Source: Gammaproteobacteria bacterium
GTDB taxonomy: Bacteria; Pseudomonadota; Gammaproteobacteria; UBA4575
Reading direction: 5' to 3'
Assembly: GCA_965221955.1 (NCBI GenBank)
Contig: CBDCTA010000005.1
Location: 1 to 64,000, forward strand
DNA length: 64,000 bases
The notes beneath the pieces were generated by a model. That model saw only the letters and a program-made list of their open reading frames with translations. It was not told the origin of the DNA and made no database searches. The translations under genes were made by a program, and so were the position numbers. Below are positions 1 through 26,811 of the stretch, one piece after another (position 1 is the stretch's first letter; the number at the start of each line of letters is the position of its first letter).

Positions 1-572
1 GAGAAGGTTTGCTATTTGTACATAATGCGCTGGTAGGAATAAATGCCCGAGAAAAAATTAAAATTGGTGTAAGTGGCCAAATCATAACTGGATTTGGTAT
101 GGCTTTTAACATGGCATTAGGTGCAGACTGGTGTAATTCTGCACGCGGATTTATGTTTGCCCTTGGATGTGTACAGTCACAAAAATGTCATACCGATAGA
201 TGTCCTACAGGTATCGCAACTCAAAATCCCTATCGACAACGTGCACTGGTTGTTAATGATAAAGCGAATAGGGTTATTAATTTTCATCACCATACAGTAA
301 GAGCATTAGGTGAAATGGTTGCAGCTGCAGGTTTATACCATCCCACTGAGTTGTGCCCAAGAAATATATGTTATCGTTTGACGCCTACTACAATACGCAC
401 TGCGGACCGTGTGTTTAATTTTCTTCAACCAGGGGAACTATTAGAAGGAACAGACAAACCAGGTTATCGCGAGTTTTGGAAAATGGCTACAGCCGATAGT
501 TTTAATCCTGCTCAGGATTGGAAAGAAACCCAAATTAAATTTAATCCTTTGTTACAAAGCACAATAATGTAA
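1..572 (+). CDS. FMN-binding glutamate synthase family protein, C-terminal part (5' end outside window)
   Basis: ALGAD-x-CNSARGFMFALGC and CHTDRCPTGIATQ motifs of the Glu_synthase FMN / 3Fe-4S region; frame open to the window edge. Confidence 0.88.
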   Translation, partial: EGLLFVHNALVGINAREKIKIGVSGQIITGFGMAFNMALGADWCNSARGFMFALGCVQSQKCHTDRCPTGIATQNPYRQRALVVNDKANRVINFHHHTVRALGEMVAAAGLYHPTELCPRNICYRLTPTTIRTADRVFNFLQPGELLEGTDKPGYREFWKMATADSFNPAQDWKETQIKFNPLLQSTIM

Positions 573-675
573 TGAATGCAGAATTAGGTAAGAGTATTCA
601 TCTCCCATTCATGAAATATCTCATAAAAAAGATGCAATTTTCATAGTCTACGATTCGTATATTCAAATCTTTATA

Positions 676-776
676 ATGTCCGCTATTGGCCGAAAGCAGA
701 CATAAAATAGGATCAAATAGGTTGGAATCAATTACATACAATAGGAAAATGACTGCTAACGACCCAAAGCGGATAT
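676..776 (+). repeat. Inter-cassette element 1 (A 676-703, B 749-776)
   Basis: ATGTCCGCTATTGGCCGAAAGCAGACAT...GGTTGGAATCAA...ATGACTGCTAACGACCCAAAGCGGATAT. Confidence 0.95.
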
Positions 777-794
777 TTTTATAGTGGGTAGGTT

Positions 795-1499
795 ATGAAC
801 AAAATTGCTTCGTCAATATTAATATTTTCTGTTATCTCCTGTAGTACACCACATCAACAGACCGAGATTTCTAAAGAAGATGATGTTCGTATTGGTCATG
901 TTAAGGGTTGCTGGTTATCGGAATACACATCCGCTGAGGAATCAAAATATGTCCTTCCATATCCAGTTGGCAAAGAATATGTAATTGGCCAGGGCAATTG
1001 TGGAATGTTCACTCATCAACCAGCTTCAATTATGAAAGGAGGATCTGTAGGTGACATACAGTTTGCCTATGATTTTTCAATGCCAATTGGTGACGAAATC
1101 GTTGCTGTAGCGGATGGAGTTGTCATTAATGTAGACGAACTTTGGGATGACAAAACTAATGACGTTACAAAACAAAACTTTATTGCTATAGAACATGATG
1201 ATGGAAGAGTCTCCGCCTATGTGCATTTAACGAGTTTTGGAAGTTTTGTTGAGATCGGAGACAAAGTTGAGCAAGGTCAAATTATTGGTAAAAGCGGTCA
1301 ATCAGGTTACGCACTTGACCCACATTTACATTTTTCTATATTTGAAAAGGATTATAAAGATTGCAATATTAGGGCAATTGAGTACCCCAAAGATTCAATA
1401 CTACATGGGTGTAAGACTGTTCCAGTTACATTTAAAAATGCCGAGCCATTAGATACACCTCCAATAGAAGGCAGAACATATAAAGCAGTACAAAACTAG
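795..1499 (+). CDS. Cassette 1: M23 family metallopeptidase lipoprotein
   Basis: Lipobox-like VISC; YxHL and PHLHF M23 motifs. Confidence 0.85.
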   Translation: MNKIASSILIFSVISCSTPHQQTEISKEDDVRIGHVKGCWLSEYTSAEESKYVLPYPVGKEYVIGQGNCGMFTHQPASIMKGGSVGDIQFAYDFSMPIGDEIVAVADGVVINVDELWDDKTNDVTKQNFIAIEHDDGRVSAYVHLTSFGSFVEIGDKVEQGQIIGKSGQSGYALDPHLHFSIFEKDYKDCNIRAIEYPKDSILHGCKTVPVTFKNAEPLDTPPIEGRTYKAVQN

Positions 1500-1507
1500 A
1501 AATATAG

Positions 1508-1607
1508 ATGTCCGCTTATGGCCGAAAGCGGACAAATTAAAGGGGAAACTGGCTGGATTCAATAAACTATAAACATAATATGACTGCTTACGACCCAAAG
1601 CGGACAT
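1508..1607 (+). repeat. Inter-cassette element 2 (A 1508-1535, B 1580-1607)
   Basis: Same A/B consensus, 44-nt linker. Confidence 0.95.
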
Positions 1608-1647
1608 TAAGAGCAGATATTGGAACTAGTAAGGAGATGTAGTTTTC

Positions 1648-2001
1648 GTGAGTAAAATCGTAATTATTGTAAATATTTTATTACTCTCTATTTCAAATTT
1701 AGCAACAGCCTCAAACTTTCAAAATGATTGTGAGGTGTTGAATAATGATTCATTAGAATGTTCTTTTAGTCTTGATCGTGATCATCCAACTATGTTGATA
1801 AAGGCAGAAAGTCGTTCTGTTTTAGATTCATACAAGCATTCTATTAGAAACACTACAAATGACTTTTGCAAAAATACAAAACATTCGTGGGTTATGTACA
1901 TACTTTTAGATGAGAGCCTTGTTAGTGGCGAAATGTGTAATGGTAAAAAAGCTAAGTGGATAACTTACGAGAAATTTAAAAAAGATGGGTTGGACTTTTA
2001 G
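1648..2001 (+). CDS. Cassette 2: small secreted hypothetical protein
   Basis: AAGGAG RBS upstream, signal peptide, 4 Cys; fills the space between two elements. Confidence 0.75.
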   Translation: MSKIVIIVNILLLSISNLATASNFQNDCEVLNNDSLECSFSLDRDHPTMLIKAESRSVLDSYKHSIRNTTNDFCKNTKHSWVMYILLDESLVSGEMCNGKKAKWITYEKFKKDGLDF

Positions 2002-2003
2002 CA

Positions 2004-2114
2004 ATGTCCGCTTATGACCGAAAGCAGACATAAATTAAGCCATTTGAGGGGATTTCAGGTTGGAATCAATGAAACATAAACTTAATATGACTGCTTACGA
2101 CCCAAAGCGGACAT
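2004..2114 (+). repeat. Inter-cassette element 3 (A 2004-2031, B 2087-2114)
   Basis: Same consensus; A core variant TGACCG; 55-nt linker. Confidence 0.95.
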
Positions 2115-2158
2115 TTATCAAAATTTTTATTCATTATTCTTTTGGCAAAAAGTAGTCA

Positions 2159-2464
2159 ATGAAATATTCGAAAAAAATCGTAATTAAATTCGTACTATTT
2201 ATTTATTTTGTATATTGCGTTTATTTAATTACATTTGCTGGAATAGATTTTAAAGCGCTCGATAATGAAAATTTGTTTATAGCAGTGAGTTATATAGTTG
2301 GATTAATTCTGTGTTTACCTGCGAACATTTGTATATTAGTTCCTGAAAGTTGGATTAGTACAACATTTTCATCTGACTTATGTGTATTTATAATAGGGTT
2401 AATTGTTGCAACATTTGTGGTTTTTGTTGCGTCTAAAATCATCTATTCTCATAAAACCGAATGA
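2159..2464 (+). CDS. Cassette 3: small membrane protein
   Basis: About 3 hydrophobic segments; TGA stop lies inside the next A site. Confidence 0.7.
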   Translation: MKYSKKIVIKFVLFIYFVYCVYLITFAGIDFKALDNENLFIAVSYIVGLILCLPANICILVPESWISTTFSSDLCVFIIGLIVATFVVFVASKIIYSHKTE

Positions 2465-2561
2465 TCGCTATTGGCCGAAAGCGGACAAAATAAGGGACAC
2501 AATGTGTTGGAATCAATTAATAACACGTTCAAAATGACTGCTAACGACCCAAAGCGGACAT
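2461..2561 (+). repeat. Inter-cassette element 4 (A 2461-2488, B 2534-2561)
   Basis: Same consensus, 45-nt linker. Confidence 0.95.
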
Positions 2562-2588
2562 TTTATTTATTTAATAGATCCAATAACG

Positions 2589-2971
2589 ATGCATAAAATA
2601 GCTAATGCTCTCGTTTTACTTGTAGTTTTATCAACCAGTCCCTTAGCCGATGAAGGCAATTCATCAGATAAAGTACGTTTCTATGATTTTCGCGAACTTG
2701 AAACTGCAACAATTAAAAAGGCTGCCTCCAAGGATCTGTATATGGTGTGACAATAATATCTTACGGTAACGATGAAAAATCACGGTCATATTACGAAGTC
2801 TTACAATCACTAACCAGCGAAGAATTTAAGATTCAAGCTTTATTTAGAGCAAAGAAAGATAGCTATGGTAGTGCAGATGTATATTTCAATGGGTACGAGT
2901 ATAAAAACGTTACTGATATTGATCAGCTAACTAAAATACTTGTTTTTGGAATGAAAAATATTTACATCTAA
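2589..2971 (+). pseudogene. Cassette 4: secreted hypothetical protein, frameshifted (or sequencing indel)
   Basis: ATG 2589 gives signal peptide MHKIANALVLLVVLSTSPLA; adding one A to the A5 run at 2715-2719 joins it to ORF 2747-2971. Confidence 0.65.
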
Positions 2972-2993
2972 ACTTCGATGGTTCTAGTATCTA

Positions 2994-3104
2994 ATGTCCG
3001 CTATTGGCCGAAAGTGGACGTAAATTAAACCGTTAAAGGGAGAGTCTGGTTGGATTCAATAAATAAAACATTCAAAATGACTGCTTACGACCCAAAGGGG
3101 ACAT
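2994..3104 (+). repeat. Inter-cassette element 5 (A 2994-3021, B 3077-3104)
   Basis: Same consensus, 55-nt linker. Confidence 0.95.
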
Positions 3105-3134
3105 TAATTTCAGGCAAAAATTAGGGGATATATT

Positions 3135-3631
3135 TTGAAACCAGAAAAATAATTGCTGTAGTAGTAAGACTATTTGCAATTGCATTACTTCTTACTATTG
3201 TTCGAGAATTAATTACAGCATTATGGGTAGTAAATGATTCGGTAAGTCTACGCCAGTATGGATTTATTTTTTTAGTCAGCGGGTTAGTTATAGTTGTATC
3301 TATTTTTCTATGGAACTTCCCTCTTACAATCGCGAAAAGAATTTACCCATTTGCTCTAGAAGACGAGCCTAAACATACATTTAACTCTGATGACTATTAT
3401 CAACTTGGTTTTATCCTATTGGGTATGTATCTATTATTTTATGTTATTTCTGATGGTGTGTTTTGGATTGCATTTACACTATATAGTGGTGAAGAGAAGA
3501 TGTATTCACCGCTGAAAGCTTTAGAGAATAAAGCTTCAATTGTTGCTACTTTTGTTGAGCTTGCTATCGCTCTTTATCTAATATTTGGAGCAAAGGGAAT
3601 CACTAATGCAATAAAGACGATCAGAAAGTGA
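3135..3631 (+). pseudogene. Cassette 5: multi-pass membrane protein, frameshifted near the start (or sequencing indel)
   Basis: AGGGGA RBS then TTG AAA CCA GAA AAA TAA; one extra A in run 3145-3149 gives MKPEKIIAVVVRLFAIALL..., open through ORF 3419-3631. Confidence 0.65.
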
Positions 3632-3641
3632 TTTTAGTATT

Positions 3642-3742
3642 ATGTCCGCTATTGGCCGTAAGCAGACATAAAATGGGACACAGTTGGTTGGAATCAAAGA
3701 ACTACAAATTTAAAATGTCCAGTATCGACCCAAAGCGGACAT
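3642..3742 (+). repeat. Inter-cassette element 6 (A 3642-3669, B 3715-3742)
   Basis: Same consensus, 45-nt linker. Confidence 0.95.
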
Positions 3743-3777
3743 TGGCTAATCGCTTGAAATGAAATTTAAATTGAATT

Positions 3778-4110
3778 GTGAATCCTTTATTTAACCGAAA
3801 TTTATTGGTTGTAACTACATTATTTGGTTTGGCATTAGTTGCATGTATGTTTGCTTGGGACTTTTCATCAAATGACCCAAGGATGGCAGATAATGTTATT
3901 TCAACTGGTGAATTTAATTGGTGGGAGACATTTATAATTTTAGTCGGAATACCATCAATTTTATTAGTTTGGGTTTATTCATTTAAACATGCATTCTCTA
4001 ATGGACGTAGAAAATGGGGTGTACTTATATTTATGTTATGGCCGCTAGCATTTTTCTACGCATGGTTTATTGCTGATGCTGTGATAGATTCTTCAAGAGA
4101 ATCTGGATGA
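3778..4110 (+). CDS. Cassette 6: small membrane protein
   Basis: 3 hydrophobic segments; TGA stop is part of the next A site (ATGACCGCT). Confidence 0.72.
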   Translation: MNPLFNRNLLVVTTLFGLALVACMFAWDFSSNDPRMADNVISTGEFNWWETFIILVGIPSILLVWVYSFKHAFSNGRRKWGVLIFMLWPLAFFYAWFIADAVIDSSRESG

Positions 4111-4206
4111 CCGCTATTGGCCGAAAGCAGACATAATTAGGAAATAACAGGTTGGATTCAATAATTTACAGACTTAAAATGGCTGCTAACGACCCAAAGC
4201 GGACAT
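4107..4206 (+). repeat. Inter-cassette element 7 (A 4107-4134, B 4179-4206)
   Basis: Same consensus, 44-nt linker. Confidence 0.95.
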
Positions 4207-4220
4207 CGGCATAAATCAAA

Positions 4221-4535
4221 ATGGCTACCTACATGAAAACGAAGTTAATCGTTTTGACAGTAACTATTTGGGTTATTTTTCCAATTGTTGTGGGAATCGT
4301 TTATTCATTATTTGAAAGAGAGGATTTGGATATTGCATTGATGAATAATGTTATTAGAGTTGGAATATTAATATTCGCACTACTATCAGCTCTAACACTA
4401 TATCTCTGCACCAAATTTTTACTCAAGACAAGTAAAAAAAATACTGATAAGGCCGTCTCTATTGTTTGTATGTTAGCTACATTGGCAGCAGTCGTTTTAT
4501 TTACACCTGCAATGTTGAATAATTTTATTGTTTAA
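4221..4535 (+). CDS. Cassette 7: small membrane protein
   Basis: 3 hydrophobic segments; fills the inter-element space. Confidence 0.7.
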   Translation: MATYMKTKLIVLTVTIWVIFPIVVGIVYSLFEREDLDIALMNNVIRVGILIFALLSALTLYLCTKFLLKTSKKNTDKAVSIVCMLATLAAVVLFTPAMLNNFIV

Positions 4536-4550
4536 TAGGAAAATAGTTAA

Positions 4551-4637
4551 ATGTCCGCTATTGGCCGAAAGGAGACATCAGGTTGGAAATATCAAAACAA
4601 AGTAGTTTAATGACCGCTAACGACCCAAAGCGGACAT
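4551..4637 (+). repeat. Inter-cassette element 8 (A 4551-4578, B 4610-4637), shortest copy
   Basis: 31-nt linker that still keeps GGTTGGAA 29 nt before B. Confidence 0.95.
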
Positions 4638-4674
4638 TAATCCCGTTTTCCAAAATTAAGTTGATGGTGTAAAA

Positions 4675-5067
4675 ATGATTGTGTTAGAAGTTAAATTGAA
4701 TGGAGAGCTCATCGCTAAAGCTGGTAAAAGTGATTTATGTGTATTGAACACAATAGTTGATGGTGTTGGTGTTTTAGGTGCTGATTCTGCCGGAACTAAA
4801 TCAGAAAAAGAAGGATATAAGACTAGTCTGAGTGTGGGTGGGCTAGGTGTAACAGCTGAGGATGAACCTGGCACACATTACAGTTGGGTTGGTAAACAGA
4901 TAATTAATGTAGGTGATGAGGTATCTATTAAATTTCTAGAATCAGAAAATGCACATGATCCTAAAATCGTAAGAGCATATACACCAGAGGAAAAAGAAAA
5001 GGAAATGAAACTACGCTGGGAAACATCACGGGACTACTATTTAAAATACAAAGACAAATATGAATAG
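4675..5067 (+). CDS. Cassette 8: soluble hypothetical protein
   Basis: 130-aa ORF bounded by elements 8 and 9. Confidence 0.75.
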   Translation: MIVLEVKLNGELIAKAGKSDLCVLNTIVDGVGVLGADSAGTKSEKEGYKTSLSVGGLGVTAEDEPGTHYSWVGKQIINVGDEVSIKFLESENAHDPKIVRAYTPEEKEKEMKLRWETSRDYYLKYKDKYE

Positions 5068-5070
5068 CAA

Positions 5071-5181
5071 ATGTCCGCTATTGGCCGAAAGCAGACATTA
5101 TTAAGATGTTACTAGGACAAGCTGGGTTGGAACAATCAAATTATTCATTCAAAATGACCGCTAACGACCCAAAGCGGACAT
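5071..5181 (+). repeat. Inter-cassette element 9 (A 5071-5098, B 5154-5181)
   Basis: Same consensus, 55-nt linker. Confidence 0.95.
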
Positions 5182-5211
5182 TAGGTTAATCAATTTAAAT
5201 GGGAGGTTGGA

Positions 5212-5787
5212 TTGAATAATTCAAAAAAGACATTTCCTTAAATATCTTTTTGGAGCATTTTTGCAGGTGTTGGGGCAACCCTTGCTGCAATACCTTTTTT
5301 TAGATTTCTCTCACCCAAAGATTATTTAAGTGAAGAATATTCTAAAGATATAAATATTTCTAAACTTAAGCCTGGCCAGGTAATGTCTATTGTTTGGCAC
5401 AATAAGCCAATTTACATTTTGAAACGAGATCAAGATGCTATCAATAGTTTAGAAATTGATAATCCTAAATTGCGTGATACGGCTTCAAGTCAGTCTAAAC
5501 AGCCGGAAAATGCAAAGAATACCTTTCGCTCAATTAAGCCAGAAATACTTGTTGTAGAGAGTATTTGCACACATAAAGGATGCTCTGTTGCGTATGACCC
5601 TCCTGGGAAAAACCGTTTCCCCAAGGACCATGTGTTATCAAAATATGGCGGGTTTTATTGTGCCTGTCATGGGGCTGTTTATGATGCTGCTGGTCGCGTA
5701 TTTAAAAACAATCCTGCACCGCATAATTTAGTTGTGCCTCAGCACGAATTTTTAAATGAACACACAATCAGATTTAGTCACAATTGA
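5212..5787 (+). CDS. Cassette 9: Rieske 2Fe-2S protein, PetA (bc1 iron-sulfur subunit)-like; 5' end disrupted by in-frame TAA 5239-5241
   Basis: CTHKGC and CACHG Rieske boxes, GRVFK-x2-PAPxNL; GGAGG RBS before TTG 5212; N-terminal TM segment upstream of ORF 5383. Confidence 0.85.
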
Positions 5788-5809
5788 ATCAATTATGATT
5801 AATTTAGAA

Positions 5810-5910
5810 ATGTCCGCTATTGGCCGTAAGCGGACATAATTAGGGATGCAATGTGTTGGAATCAATAAATTATAAGTTCAAAATGTCTGCTAACGACCCA
5901 AAGCGGACAC
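5810..5910 (+). repeat. Inter-cassette element 10 (A 5810-5837, B 5883-5910)
   Basis: Same consensus, 45-nt linker. Confidence 0.95.
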
Positions 5911-5946
5911 TTCAGGATCAGTTAATAATATTCAGATAAATCAGAA

Positions 5947-6195
5947 ATGAATCCTATTCCACTTATTATTGTTTGGATAATTCTATTCGCTGTTGTAATA
6001 GGATATGTGGTTTATCGTTTACTTACAGACAAAGAAAAAAGTGGCAAAAAACATTGGCTTTACCCTTTAAATAGCAATCCTGGTGATCCCATGTTCCCCA
6101 AACCAGGCAATATATTTGGCTGGGTAATTTACCTGCTGTTATTACTTCCTATAATTTACGTGATTGGAATGTTAGTAAATGAAAATTTATTCTAG
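5947..6195 (+). CDS. Cassette 10: small 2-TM membrane protein
   Basis: Two hydrophobic segments; bounded by elements 10 and 11. Confidence 0.7.
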   Translation: MNPIPLIIVWIILFAVVIGYVVYRLLTDKEKSGKKHWLYPLNSNPGDPMFPKPGNIFGWVIYLLLLLPIIYVIGMLVNENLF

Positions 6196-6219
6196 TTGGA
6201 TTAACCGCACAAAATATAA

Positions 6220-6330
6220 ATGTCTGCTATTGGCCGAAAGCTGACATAAATTAAGCCACTGAGAGGAATTACAGGTTGGAATCTTTAAAATACTTATTCA
6301 ATATGACCGCTAACGACCCAAAGCGGACAT
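6220..6330 (+). repeat. Inter-cassette element 11 (A 6220-6247, B 6303-6330)
   Basis: Same consensus, 55-nt linker. Confidence 0.95.
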
Positions 6331-6370
6331 TTTCGAGAAGTAGAATTTGTTTGAATAAGTCGTATAGCAC

Positions 6371-6739
6371 TTAACAATCCCTGTATCCTTTCTTTTTCTT
6401 ACACGTTAAAGCTAATTTTTTAGCCTCTTCGATTTCAGAAGGAGTCATATTTGCAGTTATTTTTCTTAAAGCTTCATCTGCTGTCGCGCCTAACCCTTGT
6501 TCTACCGCAAAGCTCACCCACATATATGCATATTGATTGTCCTGGGGTACGCCATTGCCTGTGTGATACGCTTTGCCAATTTTTAATTGACTAATCGCTG
6601 CACCATTCTCTGCAGATTTAAGCGCTTTGAACGCATCTTTTTCCGCTCTCTTAGCAGCCATTTCTTCGGGTGATGAGCAACCTGATAGAACTAAAACGAG
6701 AGCAAGCAAGGCTAGAAAAATGCGTAATTTAGGATTCAT
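6371..6739 (-). CDS. Sel1-repeat lipoprotein (inverted relative to the array)
   Basis: Lipobox LSGC; Sel1-like AENG...YHTGNGVPQD...AYMW; GGAG RBS. Confidence 0.82.
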   Translation of the reverse strand: MNPKLRIFLALLALVLVLSGCSSPEEMAAKRAEKDAFKALKSAENGAAISQLKIGKAYHTGNGVPQDNQYAYMWVSFAVEQGLGATADEALRKITANMTPSEIEEAKKLALTCKKKKGYRDC

Positions 6740-6859
6740 AAATAAGGCTCCATTTCAGCGGGCATGATGATAAATGTTGGCGACAGTACACTATATAGCC
6801 ATTATATGCGAATGTATTTCTATGATGAATGATGTGGATAAGCTAATATTTTCTTTAAC

Positions 6860-6887
6860 TTAAGCGCTAACGACCCAAGGCGGACAT
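6860..6887 (+). repeat. Lone degenerate B site
   Basis: TTAAGCGCTAA-CGACCC-AAGGCGGACAT. Confidence 0.85.
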
Positions 6888-6990
6888 TCGCATATAGTTA
6901 TCATGCTAATACTAAATTTTATACGGACTGATATTTTATAACTAACCTAAAAAATTAGTGTATTGGTTTAGATATTATTATTAGCCGCAT

Positions 6991-7680
6991 TTATATCAGC
7001 GTATTAAGTTCTGATAATGATTTGGTAACAAGATCGGGCTTATAAGAAAGCCGTTCCGAGACATGGTCGTAGCGATTTACCCATATAGAGTTAAACCCGC
7101 ATGCTGAAGCTCCAGCTATATCCCAAGAGTTAGAAGATATAAAACAAATTTTATTTCTAGCTAATGCAAGTTGTTCGCCCATAAATTCATATACTGCTGG
7201 AGATGGTTTATATGTACGAATTAATTCTGTGGAATAGATACCATCTATTAAATGATCAACACCAACTTGTTTTAAAGTAGTGCTGAGTATCTGAGGTGGG
7301 CCATTAGAGAGTACTGCTGTTGTTATTCCATTTTCCTTTAGTAATGTAAGAGCATTCTTTGCATCTTGATAGCAGTCTAATTTTGAATGTTCTAGTAGCT
7401 TGCTTTTAATTTTCTCATCGTCAAATCCATACACATCACAAGCGAAATCAAGTGTGTCTTTTCGAATCTTTTCATAATTCACATACTTATTCATTAGGCT
7501 TAGCAAAGAAGAATATTGTAGGCGTTTAGTCAACCACAATTTATAGATTTCTTGAATGTTTTCACCAAGTTGTTCACTATATTCTAAAAATGGTAAATAT
7601 GGATCAAGAATTAAGCCATAGGCATTAAATATATAAGCTTTAATGTTTTTCATATTTTTCTTCAATAATTTGGTTGGCAA
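6991..7680 (-). CDS. Haloacid dehalogenase type II (HAD) family protein; start more likely at ATG 7653
   Basis: FNAYG (motif I with Asp replaced by Asn), LSNG, YKPSP, SSNSWD. Confidence 0.85.
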   Translation of the reverse strand: MPTKLLKKNMKNIKAYIFNAYGLILDPYLPFLEYSEQLGENIQEIYKLWLTKRLQYSSLLSLMNKYVNYEKIRKDTLDFACDVYGFDDEKIKSKLLEHSKLDCYQDAKNALTLLKENGITTAVLSNGPPQILSTTLKQVGVDHLIDGIYSTELIRTYKPSPAVYEFMGEQLALARNKICFISSNSWDIAGASACGFNSIWVNRYDHVSERLSYKPDLVTKSLSELNTLI

Positions 7681-8093
7681 AGTAGACCGCTATGCGAGAT
7701 TGTCCTAATTAAAATAATATACATCTTGAGCTACTAAATTTTAGGTTGAGTACTCGTCTGGTTATAGTCAAAGAATATATATTTATTGAAAGCAAATACC
7801 TCGTGAGGTCTGTGCGAGGATACTAGAAGCTACAGAAACATTTAATGTAACTTCCACTATTTCGTTTATACAATAACTTTGTTTTGAAGTATAGGTAATG
7901 ATCTGAGGCAGTTAAACTGAAAATCAATATATAGCTGATATAGAACAAAGAAGAGTAGTTTATGAAAGTTTATTCTCTAATATCTTCATAGTTCACTTTA
8001 AGACGAGACAAACAATTAAATGATTGAAACTGTATTCATAGAAATGGTAGGCGCGTCAGCTGTTAACTTTAAATTTTTAAAGAGGTTCATCTG

Positions 8094-8585
8094 ATGATTC
8101 ATGAAGTTGCTGGAGATATTTTATTGACAAAAGCAAAAGCTATTGCTCATGGTGTGGCCCCAAATGACCATTTTAAGAATGGCCTAGCCCTTGAGTTGAG
8201 AGAACAATGGCCAGCAATGGCAAAAGATTTTCGTCATTACGCTAATCAGTCACACCCAAAAACTGGAGAGATTTGGGTTTGGAGTGGTGTGGGTGGGGTG
8301 CGTATTCTCAACTTACTAACACAGGAAGGAGGACACGAACACGGTGCCAAACCAGGTAGAGCCACACTGCCGAATGTCAATCACTGTTTGCGAAGATTGC
8401 GACATGAGCTTGAAAAGGGTGAGATTGCTAGTCTTGCATTACCAAAATTAGCCACTGGTGTTGGCGGTCTGAAGTGGAAAGAAGTGTCCCCATTAATCCA
8501 ACAGCATTTGAGTGATTTATCAATTCCTATATATATCTATACAACTTATCTCAAAGGTCAGAAAGCAAACGAAATAGGCATGTAA
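8094..8585 (+). CDS. Macro domain (Appr-1-p processing) protein
   Basis: GDILL, HGVAPNDHF, LALPKLATGVGGL macro-family motifs. Confidence 0.85.
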   Translation: MIHEVAGDILLTKAKAIAHGVAPNDHFKNGLALELREQWPAMAKDFRHYANQSHPKTGEIWVWSGVGGVRILNLLTQEGGHEHGAKPGRATLPNVNHCLRRLRHELEKGEIASLALPKLATGVGGLKWKEVSPLIQQHLSDLSIPIYIYTTYLKGQKANEIGM

Positions 8586-8598
8586 TTAAACTATTATA

Positions 8599-8626
8599 AT
8601 GTCCGCTATTGGCCGAAAGCGGACAT
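8599..8626 (+). repeat. Terminal A site of the array
   Basis: ATGTCCGCTAT-TGGCCG-AAAGCGGACAT, full consensus. Confidence 0.95.
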
Positions 8627-8742
8627 TTCGAGTTCTCTTAACTTTAATCAGATACGTCATCCATGTTGTAAACTTTGTGAGTGCATCCATGCAGTCGTAC
8701 AATTTCTGTGCTTCCGTCATACATGGAGGCCGAAGCAGACAT
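8627..8742 (+). repeat. Conserved array-end sequence with NCATCCNTGN mini-palindromes, then a degenerate half A site (8728-8742)
   Basis: 8627-8692 aligns without gaps to the reverse complement of 25694-25759. Confidence 0.8.
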
Positions 8743-8757
8743 TATTAATCAGTAAGA

Positions 8758-10878
8758 TTAATAATTCCGATATACGAAAGAACTCGAATTTCTTGCTTCT
8801 AGAAGTTTTGTGAGGTCAGTGGCGATATGTGCAGTTTCGTCTAATAATACATCAATAAAAGCTTCATCATCGTCCAACTTATTAAGATTTTCCTCTGTAT
8901 CTTTCAGTAAGTTTTCATACTCGGAGCGTGTTGACTCAAGCCGTTTATATTCTTCTTTTCTAGTGGACTCTAGCAAAGAAACTGTTTTTTGATTTCTAAC
9001 ATCATAGTCCAGTTGAAATATTTCAATTAAAGAATTGAATTTTTCATCTTCGCGTATTCTGCTTTTGTGTTTTTCAGCTGTTTGGTTAATGATCTGTACG
9101 TCTACATCGCCATAATGATGTTTAACAGGGGAGATCGTGCTTGCAGGTAGCGCATTTTTTAATGCGCGTTCACCGTATGCTTCGTCTTCAGATAAGGTAT
9201 TGAAATCGATGTCTGGAACAACACCTTGATGTTGAGTGCTGCTGCCGTTTATACGAAAATATTGCGCTATGGTTGCCTTTAATTGACCAAGCTTTTCGTC
9301 GTCACTCGTGCTGAAATTATTTAAATCTACAAGTTGTTGTACGGTGCCTTTACCAAATGTAGTTTCACCTGCGACGATGCCGCGTCGATAATCCTGAATT
9401 GCGCTGGCTACAATTTCAGAGGCCGATGCACTATAGCGATCAACTAAAACCACTAACGGTCCATAATATGAAATATCAGAGTCACGATCACGATGTACTT
9501 CAATATGGCCACTTGAGTCTTGTACTTGCACGATCGGGCCTTCATCTATAAATAGGCCAGCCAACTGAGTCGCTTCTGTCAGTGAGCCGCCCCCGTTTCC
9601 GCGCAAGTCTAAAATTAATGCATCAATTTTTTGTTTTTTAAGCTCTGTGAGCAAGTTGTTCACATCGCGAGTGGTGCTTCTATAATCTTTGTCACCACGT
9701 TGGTATGCAGCAAAATCGATGTAAAAAGTGGGTACATCGATCACTCCAATTTTATATTGTTGTGCGCCTTCTTCTATTTCGATGACTTCACTCTTGGCAG
9801 CTTGTTCTTCTAATTTAATTTTGTCACGAGTAATTTGAATTTCTTTTATCTTTGCGGCTTGACCTTCATCACCCGGTAATATTTGCAAATTTACTTTGGT
9901 GCCTTTAGCGCCACGAATTAATGCAACCACTTCTTCCAAGCGCCAACCCACTACATCTTTAAATTCTTTTTCGTTTTCTTGTGAGATACCTACAATCCTG
10001 TCAGTACCGTGTAATAAATCACTTAAATCTGCTGGCCCGCCAGGGATGATTTTTTCTACTACTGTATATTCGCCATCTGTTCTCAATAACGCACCAATAC
10101 CTTCTAATGAAAGGCTCATTCGAATTTCAAAGTTTTTAGAAGTTCTTGGTGATAAATAGTTAGTATGAGGTTCTAAAGTACTTGCAAACGCATTGATGAA
10201 AAGTTGATAGACATCTTCAGCATCTACTTGTGTACTGCGTTTAGCAATACCTCTGTACCGCTTTTCTAATGTCTCTTTGATTTCTGAAGGTTTTTTATCT
10301 GCGAGTCTTAAAGTTAGTACATCGTTTTTTACACGCTTACGCCAGATTTCATTTAATTCATTACTGTTCTGAGCCCATGCAGATTCTGAACGATCTATGA
10401 TTAACTCTTCATCAATTTTAAAATTAAATTTATCTTCTAACAAATCTAAGGCAAATAATACACGTTCATCTACTCGTGCTTGATATAAGCGGAACATTTG
10501 GAAAGGAGCATTTAAATCTGTTCTAGAAATTGCATCATCTAGTTTGAAACGAAAGATTTGAAAACTATCAATATCCTTTTGATAGAAATAGCTGCGATTT
10601 GGATCTAATGCTTCGAGATAAGCATTTAATATTTGAGCAGAAAGCGTGTTGTTGATATTAAATTCTTTATAGTGGTACTTATCTAAAAAATGCGTGATCA
10701 GTTTAGTGGCACGATTATGTTGTTTTCCAGGACTAAGAATTTCGCTTGTATTACTATAGCTAACGCTGCTTGCAGCAATCAGCGTTAATGCGGTGAGACA
10801 GAAAAGGATTAATTTTGAAGAGAATTTTTCCAAAATAGAATGCTTAATATTGATGTAATTAATGTGCAGTTTAGACAA
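8758..10878 (-). CDS. prc: Carboxy-terminal processing (tail-specific) protease, S41
   Basis: PDZ GIGA, DLRGNGGG, SASASEI, TFGKGTVQ. Confidence 0.93.
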   Translation of the reverse strand: MSKLHINYINIKHSILEKFSSKLILFCLTALTLIAASSVSYSNTSEILSPGKQHNRATKLITHFLDKYHYKEFNINNTLSAQILNAYLEALDPNRSYFYQKDIDSFQIFRFKLDDAISRTDLNAPFQMFRLYQARVDERVLFALDLLEDKFNFKIDEELIIDRSESAWAQNSNELNEIWRKRVKNDVLTLRLADKKPSEIKETLEKRYRGIAKRSTQVDAEDVYQLFINAFASTLEPHTNYLSPRTSKNFEIRMSLSLEGIGALLRTDGEYTVVEKIIPGGPADLSDLLHGTDRIVGISQENEKEFKDVVGWRLEEVVALIRGAKGTKVNLQILPGDEGQAAKIKEIQITRDKIKLEEQAAKSEVIEIEEGAQQYKIGVIDVPTFYIDFAAYQRGDKDYRSTTRDVNNLLTELKKQKIDALILDLRGNGGGSLTEATQLAGLFIDEGPIVQVQDSSGHIEVHRDRDSDISYYGPLVVLVDRYSASASEIVASAIQDYRRGIVAGETTFGKGTVQQLVDLNNFSTSDDEKLGQLKATIAQYFRINGSSTQHQGVVPDIDFNTLSEDEAYGERALKNALPASTISPVKHHYGDVDVQIINQTAEKHKSRIREDEKFNSLIEIFQLDYDVRNQKTVSLLESTRKEEYKRLESTRSEYENLLKDTEENLNKLDDDEAFIDVLLDETAHIATDLTKLLEARNSSSFVYRNY

Positions 10879-24653: not shown

Positions 24654-25691
24654 TTGGCTTTATTAACGATGCAAGCAAAAACACAAATTCAAGATACTTT
24701 ATCACGACCTATTCGTGATCTAAGAATTTCGGTTACGGATCGTTGTAATTTTCGTTGCACCTATTGTATGCCGAAAGAAGTGTTCAATTCAGAATATGAG
24801 TTTTTACGCAGAGATGATTTGCTTAGTTTCGAAGAAATCGCTCGAATATCAAAAATTTTCGCAAATATAGGCGTCAAAAAAATTCGTTTAACTGGGGGGG
24901 AGCCCTTATTACGAAAGAATCTTCCAGTTTTAATTAAGCAACTATCAAATATTGATGGAATTGAAGATATCAGTTTAACCACTAATGGTGTTCTTCTAAC
25001 TACTGAAGTTGCGCAGCAATTAAAAGATGCAGGCTTGAAACGCATTACCATTAGTTTAGATGCGCTGGATGACGAAACATTTAAAGCGATAAGCGATGTA
25101 AATTTTAATGTAGAAAAAGTATTAGCCTCTGTAGAACATGCTCAGAACGCAGAGCTTGACCCCATTAAAATTAACATGGTGGTGAAAAAAGGTATTAATG
25201 AACATTCTATTTTGCCAATGGCGAAACATTATCACGGCAGTGGCGTTATTTTACGTTTCATTGAATTCATGGATGTGGGTAGCACCAATCAATGGCAAAT
25301 GGATGATGTGTTTTCTGCTAAAGAAATTGCAAATGTAATTCATCAAGAGTTGCCTATTGAACCTGCAGAAGCTAATTATCACGGTGAAGTGGCAAAACGC
25401 TGGCAATATAAAGATGGTGGTGGAGAAATTGGAATTATTTCTTCTGTGACGCAACCATTTTGCCAAAGCTGCACACGCGCAAGGCTTTCTGCAGAAGGCA
25501 AACTCTATACTTGTTTATTTGCTACACAAGGTAAAGATTTACGCCATCTTGTTCGCGAACAAGCAGACGATAAACATATTCAAGATGTCATTACTGCAAT
25601 TTGGAAAAAACGCAATGATCGTTACTCAGAACTACGAACTTCTGAAACCGTCTTGCTCCCAAAAGTAGAAATGTCTTATATTGGTGGGTAA
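24654..25691 (+). CDS. moaA: GTP 3',8-cyclase MoaA (start probably ATG 24669)
   Basis: CNFRCTYC radical-SAM motif, FCQSCTRAR, C-terminal MSYIGG. Confidence 0.96.
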   Translation: MALLTMQAKTQIQDTLSRPIRDLRISVTDRCNFRCTYCMPKEVFNSEYEFLRRDDLLSFEEIARISKIFANIGVKKIRLTGGEPLLRKNLPVLIKQLSNIDGIEDISLTTNGVLLTTEVAQQLKDAGLKRITISLDALDDETFKAISDVNFNVEKVLASVEHAQNAELDPIKINMVVKKGINEHSILPMAKHYHGSGVILRFIEFMDVGSTNQWQMDDVFSAKEIANVIHQELPIEPAEANYHGEVAKRWQYKDGGGEIGIISSVTQPFCQSCTRARLSAEGKLYTCLFATQGKDLRHLVREQADDKHIQDVITAIWKKRNDRYSELRTSETVLLPKVEMSYIGG

Positions 25692-25759
25692 GCGCATGGA
25701 TGCGCGCATATGATGCCCATCAGGGATGATGTAACAGATTAAAGTTAGGTATTTTCAAA

Positions 25760-25787
25760 ATGTCCGCTTTCGGCCATAAGCGGACAT
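25760..25787 (-). repeat. A site of the solo cassette
   Basis: Reverse complement ATGTCCGCTTA-TGGCCG-AAAGCGGACAT. Confidence 0.95.
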
Positions 25788-25828
25788 TTTAGGTTACTAG
25801 TATTTATAATTAGTTATCTACTTAGAAA

Positions 25829-26116
25829 CTATAAAATATGTCGACGAATTAAAATCCAAGCAAGCGGCAGTAACGCAATCAAAGCCGATATTATTAATGA
25901 AGTTCTAAACGTGCCTTCTCGCGCTTCAATAATACACTGATATACAGCTATTCCTGCAATTACAAAGCTGAGCAACACCGGTATGAGAAACAAAGGTGCT
26001 GTAGACCATGCACCCCATCCATCATAATTGCGAATATATAATTCAATTCCAACAAGAACTGAAACAGGAATCAAGCAAAGAAATTCTAGTATATGCTTTC
26101 GGCCAATAGCGGTCAT
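25829..26116 (-). CDS. Solo-cassette cargo: small 3-TM membrane protein
   Basis: Hydrophobic ORF with ATGA overlap to the upstream gene. Confidence 0.72.
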   Translation of the reverse strand: MTAIGRKHILEFLCLIPVSVLVGIELYIRNYDGWGAWSTAPLFLIPVLLSFVIAGIAVYQCIIEAREGTFRTSLIISALIALLPLAWILIRRHIL

Positions 26117-26754
26117 TGATTAACTGGTTTCCAACGATACCAAGAAATTACTTTCCATTTATCTGCAAACAATAAATTCTGACTTATTCTCTTTGTCTCA
26201 CTTTCCATGATCAACCATCCATTTTGGCTTTTACTAAACTTTCGAGTTTCTGATGAACTATGATTGGCTAATACAATAGTATCAACGTTAAATCGTTTCT
26301 TTAAAATTAAGTTCCCATTCTCACAATGGAAGTCACCATTTTTAATACTTAATGTCTGAGTTCCTTTAGGGGAATTACGTTCCCACATTTTAATACTTAG
26401 CTGATCGTGGTTTGGCTGTTGCAGCTCAGCTACCGTACCAGACAAAACCACTTCACATCTGCTCTGCCATGTCCATCTTTTGCTATGACCTGTCCTATAA
26501 TAATCTTCAAATTCAGGCATTTTTTTCGATAAAAGTTGAAAATCTAAACGATAGCAGGAAAGGATTTGAGCTTTTGGGATTTCAGCATCCACATCATAAA
26601 ATCCTGAAACATTGGGGCATTGATTATTTTTATTTTCGTTTTCTAATTTTGACCACTCTATAGGATACTCAACGATTACATCCTCCATATACATGGAACA
26701 TGAGGTCAGTAAAATAATATGCATATAGATGATTGAAATTGAAATCACACGCAT
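26113..26754 (-). CDS. Solo-cassette cargo: hypothetical lipoprotein
   Basis: Lipobox LTSC; starts 29 nt after the B site. Confidence 0.75.
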   Translation of the reverse strand: MRVISISIIYMHIILLTSCSMYMEDVIVEYPIEWSKLENENKNNQCPNVSGFYDVDAEIPKAQILSCYRLDFQLLSKKMPEFEDYYRTGHSKRWTWQSRCEVVLSGTVAELQQPNHDQLSIKMWERNSPKGTQTLSIKNGDFHCENGNLILKKRFNVDTIVLANHSSSETRKFSKSQNGWLIMESETKRISQNLLFADKWKVISWYRWKPVNQ

Positions 26755-26783
26755 GTTTCAAGAGCCAATCTTTAGTGTGCTAA

Positions 26784-26811
26784 ATGTCCGCTTTGGGTCG
26801 TTAAAGGTCAT
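26784..26811 (-). repeat. B site of the solo cassette, abutting the moaB stop codon
   Basis: Reverse complement ATGACCTTTAA-CGACCC-AAAGCGGACAT. Confidence 0.93.

Follow-up and report, generated by a model that had tools for sequence, protein, structure and literature searches.

A promoter-like module in fixed register with one of two palindromes that bound small accessory genes in an uncultured gammaproteobacterial genus

Introduction

How are the genes of a cassette array expressed when no integron machinery is at hand? The question is raised by a 64,000-nt stretch of DNA (hereafter the window; positions 1 to 64,000 of the forward strand of contig CBDCTA010000005.1, assembly GCA_965221955.1) from a gammaproteobacterium of the GTDB lineage UBA4575. 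The first 6.4 kb of the window hold 11 composite junctions, in each of which a linker joins two near-palindromes of 28 nt, termed A and B, with A situated directly 3′ of the stop codon of one gene and B 14-44 nt 5′ of the start of the next. Integron cassettes are promoterless as a rule and depend on the promoter Pc, as described in the relevant passages of two earlier studies (PMC11511950; 10.1101/2023.11.21.568050). A preliminary description of the window had instead noted a sigma-70-like motif in every linker and proposed that each cassette could have its own promoter, with B covering the transcription start.

In order to evaluate this proposal, the linkers were compared within the window, across the source genome (2.69 Mb in 29 contigs, 96.6% complete; A and B sites called at ≤ 5 mismatches) and with related and distant genomes. 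To judge from the sequence, a conserved linker module (M) and the edge of B may together form a weak to moderate sigma-70 promoter that would give the genes behind A-M-B a start of their own inside B, and B is probably a protein site at which the same promoter could also be repressed. We place the probability of this reading at roughly 0.42; it is coherent, and it is weighed below against several features of the module and three other explanations.

Results and discussion

A promoter-like module in fixed register with B

A six-mer of the GGTTGG type begins exactly 29 nt before B at all 11 junctions, as previously described (starts at 720, 1551, 2058, 2505, 3048, 3686, 4150, 4581, 5125, 5854, and 6274, for B sites starting from 749 to 6303). 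It reads GGTTGG at eight junctions, TGTTGG at two and GGCTGG at one, and constitutes the core of M, a 38-nt module that abuts B. Embedded in it is a first hexamer (TTGGAA or TTGGAT at 10 junctions, CTGGAT at one), and the second hexamers are the ones listed before: CAAAAT at four junctions, TAAAAT and TAATAT at two each, and CAATAT, TTTAAT, and GAAAAT at one each. The sigma-70-like layout claimed for this motif holds in its geometry, as a TTG hexamer, 17 nt and a hexamer with A2 and T6 whose end overlaps the first two bases of B were found at 10 of 11 junctions, but the match to the consensus is weak. Similarly, the intervening sequence, presented earlier as 17 variable AT-rich nucleotides, does have this length at every junction but is not freely variable, since four of its positions are conserved.

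Conservation was counted over 108 distinct M-B junctions from this and other genomes (positions are numbered backwards from B, B2 being its second base). The hexamer at -27 to -22 is TTGGAA in 64 copies and TTGGAT in 23, with each base of the TTG retained in 104-107 copies (10/11 in the window), while the hexamer from -4 to B2 is TAAAAT in 40, CAAAAT in 27, TAATAT and TTTAAT in 9 each, GAAAAT in 6, CAATAT in 4, and TATAAT in 3. The latter has A at -3 in 98 copies, T at B2 in 107, and T as its first base in 62. The conserved spacer positions are C at -20 (86 copies), A at -15 (97), A at -11 (99), and A at -9 (95). The spacing of 17 bp, present in all 11 window junctions and all 108 copies, lies within the sigma-70 range of 16-18 bp.

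M faces the downstream gene throughout, precedes only B-type sites and is absent from the A-side ends. The whole genome carries 84 B and 77 A sites (about 160 copies), arranged in further arrays and in single units of B, gene and A, and GGTTGG (≤ 1 mismatch) is found at -29 of 41 of the B sites; a co-oriented open reading frame (ORF) follows within 160 nt behind 35 of these 41. A genome-wide profile search for M returned 47 matches, 42 followed by B and four by an interrupted B, so that M is never a free-standing regulatory sequence. The same A-linker-B junctions are carried by all 14 sister genomes of the genus and by one genome of the next genus; 20 regions of these genomes supplied 43 further junctions, every one with GGTTGG in the same register, and the distance of 29 nt to B is invariant in all 74 A-linker-B junctions known from this and the sister genomes.

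The promoter would work as follows: TTGGAW would serve as the -35 element and YAAAAT, whose last two bases are the AT opening B, as the -10 element, at a distance of 17 bp. Transcription would start near B positions 9-11 and produce leaders of about 30-65 nt, and the genes behind A-M-B would obtain a start of their own and not rely on read-through from upstream. Occupation of B would cover both the -10 box and the start site and could therefore repress. At least 8 of 12 consensus positions, together with A2 and T6, were found in 77 of the 108 copies, and a stricter form (≥ 4 matches in each hexamer, A2 and T6) occurs at one fixed register in 0.13% of sampled genome positions. A similar arrangement was read by eye at a junction without M, in which B is preceded by E, a structured element of about 55 nt that is described below: TTCAGA-17-TAGAAT, in the same register to B.

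What weighs against a promoter

Several observations speak against the promoter, among them the modest score of the hexamers. TTGGAA and TTGGAT match TTGACA at 3-4 of 6 positions and the -10-like hexamers of the window match TATAAT at 3-5 of 6 (A2 and T6 in 10/11), which adds up to 6-9 of 12 per junction. Only 6 of 11 window junctions reach ≥ 4/6 in each hexamer with A2 and T6, a 9-of-12 rule is passed by a single one (junction 6, 3688-3716), and junction 8 (B 4610) has TTTAAT, without A at position 2. The fourth -35 position is always G where the consensus has A, C takes the first -10 position in 38 of 108 copies, and G is avoided at -6, which leaves no extended -10. A promoter scan of positions 500-7000 gave 20 sites, compared with 28.5 (standard deviation 5.3) in shuffled sequences, i.e., promoter-like matches are cheap in this A+T-rich DNA. 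The recurrence of the motif is far beyond chance, but only for the reason that all 11 junctions belong, as copies, to one repeat family; TTGGAW-N17-NWWWAT occurs in the 64 kb 11 times on the + strand (10 of them inside the array) and three times on the - strand.

The pattern of conservation is also partly foreign to a promoter. The G residues at -28 and -24 vary as little as the TTG, and the core amounts to GTTGGA plus four spacer positions rather than to a -35 box; those four positions (C at -20, A at -15, -11, and -9) and GG at -39/-38 are conserved at 78-92% without a promoter reason, and the spacer has no 16- or 18-nt version among the 108 copies. The last three bases of the supposed -10 belong to B and its flank even where M is missing, as the M-less B sites of the genome show A at -1 in 82%, T at -4 in 60%, and A at -3 in 57%. 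Inward junctions between E and an inverted A-type site look similar, yet no gene follows there in sense. An intact ORF is missing behind six of the 41 M-bearing B sites, and one of these is window junction 11, behind which there is no + strand ORF and the adjoining gene (6371-6739) lies on the - strand. The orientation and placement of M fit a promoter at each junction, as had been proposed, and on the whole this proposal is partly supported. No U-tract follows A, so that the junction is without the terminator half found in the promoter early stem-loop (PeSL) cassettes of phages discussed below. Finally, a search of sequencing runs with window positions 500-7000 listed no RNA run. The two runs that matched are contigs of DNA or unknown type that share 6-8% of words, corresponding to scattered repeat copies, cassette parts and, in one contig, most of cassette 5.

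Other candidate signals were looked for in the same sequences. The reverse strand of M is a poor match to a promoter, and sites for integration host factor (IHF), sigma-54, and sigma-E did not fit in the linkers when compared by eye with the consensus motifs. By eye, neither a small ORF common to the linkers nor a conserved hairpin around M was found.

Other roles for the module

The rigid geometry would also suit an accessory or architectural DNA-binding site for the machinery acting on B, contacted by an extra subunit or by a nucleoid protein, its promoter look being incidental; M would then serve to position or bend the stretch between A and B when recombination or insertion takes place. 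The distance between GGTTGG and B is fixed in all 108 copies, the potential contacts (GTTGGA, C at -20, A at -15, -11, and -9) extend over about 21 bp, and the linker lengths are quantised: 36 of the 74 junctions have 45 nt and 29 have 55 nt, one helical turn apart, with 44 nt (3), 54 nt (3), 43 nt (1), and 31 nt (2) as the remaining lengths, the A-side part coming in length classes. A and B themselves behave as double-stranded protein sites, and an A x A event and an inverted A centre separate two apparent strain variants of one locus (see below). An IHF site in the long linker of Escherichia coli repetitive extragenic palindrome (REP) pairs offers a parallel. Head-to-head REP dimers are known for conserved spacers, according to the pertinent part of PMC3733652. 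Against this role, M is absent from 38 of 82 classed B sites, which flank genes in the same way, and never occurs on the A side; the same M23 cassette is found behind two linker types and behind a bare B, and distant lineages keep A and B with linkers that have only 0-20 nt or are G+C-rich. No candidate protein presents itself, and the IHF consensus fits at most 1-2 of the 11 linkers by eye. We regard this role as unlikely.

Shared ancestry alone could explain part of the conservation, if M were a passenger without function of its own in a recently spread repeat whose A-linker-B unit undergoes concerted evolution. Whole-junction sub-families do recur at 85-93% identity between unrelated genes and B variants track the linker classes, which implies that whole junctions are copied, homogenised and evolve as units. 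The neighbouring positions are saturated, though, with information below 0.4 bit at -36, -34, -32, -10, -8, -7, and -6 of the 108 copies, while GTTGG, C at -20, A at -15, -11, and -9, and AAA are retained at 80-99% across sub-families and genomes, and no insertion or deletion was found in the 29 nt before B in any copy. Because of this saturation pure hitch-hiking is improbable, and we hold the passenger explanation to be quite improbable as a whole.

The last explanation moves the function of M to RNA, where GGA-type islands on read-through transcripts would be bound by a CsrA/RsmA-like protein that controls translation or stability of the downstream gene. No terminator separates the cassette genes, which makes read-through RNA containing M likely, csrA is present in the genome, and both linker islands (A/G-GG-A/G at -40 to -37 and GGA at -25 to -23) contain GG(G)A; moreover, the GGA-looped hairpins of the neighbouring E resemble the core of M (e.g., UUGGAU). 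On the other hand, GTT is as conserved as GGA, of which the final A is the weakest core position (92/108), M lies outside any conserved hairpin loop and is separated from the ribosome-binding site by 42-72 nt including all of B, and no GGA in the E loops or linker islands is tied to a ribosome-binding site. Inverted copies of E are also present at the distal ends of arrays, a placement that suggests a role at the DNA level, and Rfam has no match. Of the explanations considered, a function in RNA strikes us as the most improbable.

Element E

E is present in 48 genome copies and forms two short hairpins with compensatory changes (one pair being A-U in 16, U-A in 16, and G-C in 2 copies, another A-U in 10, G-C in 9, and C-G in 6); GGA stands in both loops in almost all of 34 distinct full-length copies. 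It is followed after about 25 nt by B or by an inverted A-type site, or has M inserted before B. Among the 48 copies, 11 are of the order E-M-B, 8 are E-B, and 13 lead to an inverted A-type site, in none of which M is present. E copies frame gene sets of the B...A type as inverted outer arms, and about one quarter of them sit after the first ~21 nt of a split B or inverted A site. An Rfam search up to an E-value of 1, covering window positions 1-9000 and eight loci with E, returned only chance matches (a plant miRNA hairpin, and SymR with an E-value of 0.76). Beside some B and, inverted, some A sites, E is replaced by a repeat of about 75 nt (C2:220226, C29:464313, and C29:70725 of the source genome) that yields a perfect TATAAT across the B boundary.

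Distribution beyond the genus

The exact 22-nt core of B was found in at least 124 stretches of other genomes, among them those of the isolates Luteimonas soli, Noviluteimonas lactosilytica, and Billgrantia saliphila as well as metagenome-assembled genomes (MAGs) labelled Alphaproteobacteria, Burkholderiales, Nitrospina, Gemmatimonadales, and others. The distant lineages have this core mostly once per genome, often paired with an A-like unit, and with linkers that measure 0-20 nt or are G+C-rich and lack M; outside the source genome M is present in 24 of 119 B contexts. Judging by this persistence of the B core in many genomes, M is dispensable for the sites. A Pfam scan of 73 open frames near single B sites in 18 distant genomes revealed no family in common, and no match was obtained when one junction was compared with plasmids and phages by blastn.

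Nature of the sites, gene turnover and enzymes sought

The A and B units begin with ATGTC or ATGAC and end with CAT (ACGTC variants are rare), and have 9-bp arms around a 10-nt centre. The single strand of a junction does fold as one long bulged attC-like hairpin (z -3.3 to -6.7). Changes in one arm are not matched by compensating ones in the other, however, nor is there co-variation between A and B over the 74 junctions; by these patterns of variation, A and B look like double-stranded sites for a dimeric protein rather than selected hairpins.

Contigs C14 (1-12000) and C23 (7000-28000) hold 99%-identical versions of one locus next to xerD-dsbC, either through strain heterogeneity in the assembly or as a real duplication. 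In C14, a 1,035-bp two-gene insert (an HxlR-type regulator and a flavodoxin-like gene) lies between two A sites where C23 has one hybrid A instead. In addition, a segment of 1.5 kb bounded by a B and an A that both contigs share is exchanged for 11 kb of cassettes, and this shared A has an inverted centre. The M23 gene of the window is met again in a sister genome, preceded there by a different class of linker, and at another place in the source genome, where it follows a bare B; the macro-domain gene has only A in the window genome, only B in two sister genomes and neither in a third. These changes of context mean that genes and sites are reshuffled and that the linker is tied to neither neighbouring gene. 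The A-linker-B junctions would in this way act as portable homology or recombination sites for the gain, loss and swap of genes.

The search for an enzyme acting on these sites was negative. Four matches to PF00589 were found in the genome, namely XerD (one locus on two contigs), XerC and a 431-aa P4-type integrase located elsewhere; by this assignment, which is based on the neighbouring genes, the integron integrase IntI was not found among these tyrosine recombinases. The genome had no match to the REP-associated tyrosine transposase (RAYT/Y1, PF01797), and likewise none to IS110 DEDD transposases, reverse transcriptases or rve integrases. A serine recombinase was considered and rejected: it is a single 540-aa gene beside a phage terminase, and its family is present in only 4 of 15 genus genomes and thus cannot serve the repeats. 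Sites of the Xer/dif type were rejected too, as the genome has one canonical dif site (contig 4, near 59.8 kb) and A and B are unlike it. In 4 of the 12 genus genomes compared, xerD has an A site or an E core within 1.5 kb. One distant MAG of the Gammaproteobacteria (G036:C1:361000-370857) has a 244-codon ORF for a tyrosine recombinase (5174-5908, - strand) that ends exactly at the only B site of that genome.

Comparison with known systems

Of the known repeats, REP dimers with conserved spacers come closest, and the nearest functional parallel is the phage PeSL. CGTC-tagged REP families were reported from five phyla without a transposase, in a discussion that calls a promoter role of the repeats speculative without experiments (PMC3733652, in the section concerned); REP dimers and bacterial interspersed mosaic elements, including transposase-less CGTC-tagged families, are also treated in part of PMC3333891. 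The sites described here share with REPs their form and placement, as about 160 copies of short (28-bp) palindromes just past stop codons and between genes, and the prevalence of head-to-head heterodimers with conserved spacers of 20-100 bp (here 45 or 55 nt). REP dimers occur, as do our sites, in several phyla without a dedicated transposase, to go by the account in PMC3733652, and sometimes lie within a longer palindromic sequence, as our B...A units do between inverted copies of E. They differ in that REPs have a terminal GTAG/CGTC tag and loops of 4-5 nt, whereas here the ends are ATG...CAT, with the arms and centre given above; in addition, the roles are fixed here (A at gene ends, B at gene starts), the spacer carries a promoter-like module, and the units bound variable genes in arrays.

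PeSLs are conserved motifs of promoter and stem-loop that flank orphan genes of T4-type phages and mediate their shuffling, as outlined in portions of PMC2839356 (see also PMC4122927); in the passage concerned, the authors of the former saw no evidence for such plasticity in cellular organisms. Both systems have a composite motif, with a sigma-70-like promoter beside a palindrome, repeated at junctions of small orphan genes in hyperplastic regions, and in both genes are gained, lost or replaced at the motifs with no dedicated recombinase identified. The PeSL promoters have a strong consensus and are proven by reporters, and their stem-loops are proven terminators, as far as covered in those portions of PMC2839356; in contrast, the match of the present putative promoter is weak, U-tracts are missing and the host is a bacterial chromosome.

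The likeness to integrons is one of layout, i.e., rows of small, co-oriented, mostly orphan genes, and not of machinery. Further shared features are imperfect inverted repeats of about 100 nt that can be folded as a bulged hairpin and the recurrence of cassettes in different contexts, while the absence of IntI, of attC core triplets at the ends and of A:B co-variation, as well as the scattering of single sites over the genome, sets the present system apart. The 28-bp pdif sites of the Xer modules on Acinetobacter plasmids, readable as 11-6-11, flank small gene modules. They resemble our sites in length and in surrounding small genes, and XerC and XerD are the only conserved recombinases here, but A and B are unlike the dif of the genome and arrays are near xerD in only the 4 of 12 genus genomes mentioned. 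Correia elements of Neisseria can create promoters at their ends, according to the part of PMC2649163 that deals with them. As far as this account goes, they too are elements of about 100-150 bp bounded by inverted repeats that can give a promoter to an adjacent gene, and they bind a nucleoid protein; unlike the present junctions, they do not bound gene cassettes and have the promoters at the element ends and not in a central spacer.

With REP dimers with conserved spacers and PeSLs as the known kinds, the array can be seen as a variant of these. Four site strings of 15-16 nt occurred in no full text of the searched literature (supplements not covered). We entertain as a rather doubtful idea that the array is a cellular counterpart of the phage PeSL cassettes, with a transposase-less REP-like 28-bp pair bounding each small accessory gene and a spacer that serves as a portable promoter fused to one palindrome; each gene of an array would then be self-expressing, and one palindrome-binding protein could silence (on the start site in B) and recombine. 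Records that carry the labels of several other phyla also contain these palindromes, minus the promoter module.

If M is a promoter, cassette arrays need not follow the logic of one Pc and mostly silent distal cassettes, expression would not fall with position in the array, and whole sets of accessory genes could be switched on or off through one palindrome-binding factor; a promoter in M would also provide a concrete function for the conserved spacers of REP type, largely unexplained so far. Apart from the promoter question, an uncultured marine genus of Gammaproteobacteria has, in at least 15 genomes, a palindrome pair with fixed roles that brackets variable genes; the search revealed no known mobilising enzyme, and the exact 22-nt core recurs in isolates and MAGs of many lineages.

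Organization of the window

All 11 junctions lie on the + strand. Junction 1 (676-776) consists of A 676-703, a linker of 45 nt (704-748) with M at 711-748, and B 749-776, its motifs being GGTTGG 720-725, the -35-like TTGGAA 722-727 and the -10-like GAAAAT 745-750. The same order applies to the following ones. Junction 2 (1508-1607) has A 1508-1535, a 44-nt linker with GGCTGG 1551-1556, CTGGAT 1553-1558 and TAATAT 1576-1581, and B 1580-1607, and junction 3 (2004-2114) has A 2004-2031, a 55-nt linker with GGTTGG 2058-2063, TTGGAA 2060-2065 and TAATAT 2083-2088, and B 2087-2114. In junction 4 (2461-2561), A 2461-2488 and B 2534-2561 enclose a 45-nt linker (TGTTGG 2505-2510, TTGGAA 2507-2512, CAAAAT 2530-2535), and in junction 5 (2994-3104), A 2994-3021 and B 3077-3104 enclose one of 55 nt (GGTTGG 3048-3053, TTGGAT 3050-3055, CAAAAT 3073-3078). 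Junctions 6 (3642-3742; A 3642-3669, B 3715-3742) and 7 (4107-4206; A 4107-4134, B 4179-4206) have linkers of 45 and 44 nt, the former with GGTTGG 3686-3691, TTGGAA 3688-3693 and TAAAAT 3711-3716, the latter with GGTTGG 4150-4155, TTGGAT 4152-4157 and TAAAAT 4175-4180. The shortest linker (31 nt) belongs to junction 8 (4551-4637), where A 4551-4578 is followed by 2 nt and GGTTGG 4581-4586, then by TTGGAA 4583-4588, TTTAAT 4606-4611 and B 4610-4637. Junction 9 (5071-5181) comprises A 5071-5098, a 55-nt linker with GGTTGG 5125-5130, TTGGAA 5127-5132 and CAAAAT 5150-5155, and B 5154-5181; junction 10 (5810-5910) comprises A 5810-5837, a 45-nt linker with TGTTGG 5854-5859, TTGGAA 5856-5861 and CAAAAT 5879-5884, and B 5883-5910. 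The row closes with junction 11 (6220-6330; A 6220-6247, B 6303-6330), the 55-nt linker of which holds GGTTGG 6274-6279, TTGGAA 6276-6281 and CAATAT 6299-6304.

Ten small + strand genes (795-6195) are placed one between each B and the next A, with stop codons 0-24 nt 5′ of A or overlapping it. They include an M23 peptidase gene (795-1499) and a Rieske-domain gene (5383-5787, with its 5′ part out of frame), the others encoding mostly orphan membrane or secreted proteins without a Pfam family above the curated cut-off. Downstream of the array, a lone degenerate B site without M (6860-6887, + strand) and a lone A site (8599-8626, + strand) were found, the latter 13 nt past the macro-domain gene (8094-8585) and followed by a degenerate inverted copy of E at ~8640-8700. 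A second set of sites (25688-26811, - strand) has B 26784-26811, without M and right after a stop codon, A 26089-26116 and A 25760-25787; beside the last, a copy of E (25688-25740, own sense +) points inwards.

The gene of cassette 5 (3135-3631) is out of frame at an A-run, and in a metagenome contig one extra A after 3144 makes it a continuous open frame, about 165 codons long. Two further genes, at 2589-2971 and 5212-5787 (Rieske), are split between frames as well. A stretch of 25 nt at 5197-5221, located at the start of the Rieske gene and its ribosome-binding site, shares 84% identity with the M core of junction 7 (4142-4166), including GGTTGGATT; this likeness may be a hint at the origin of M or may be due to chance.

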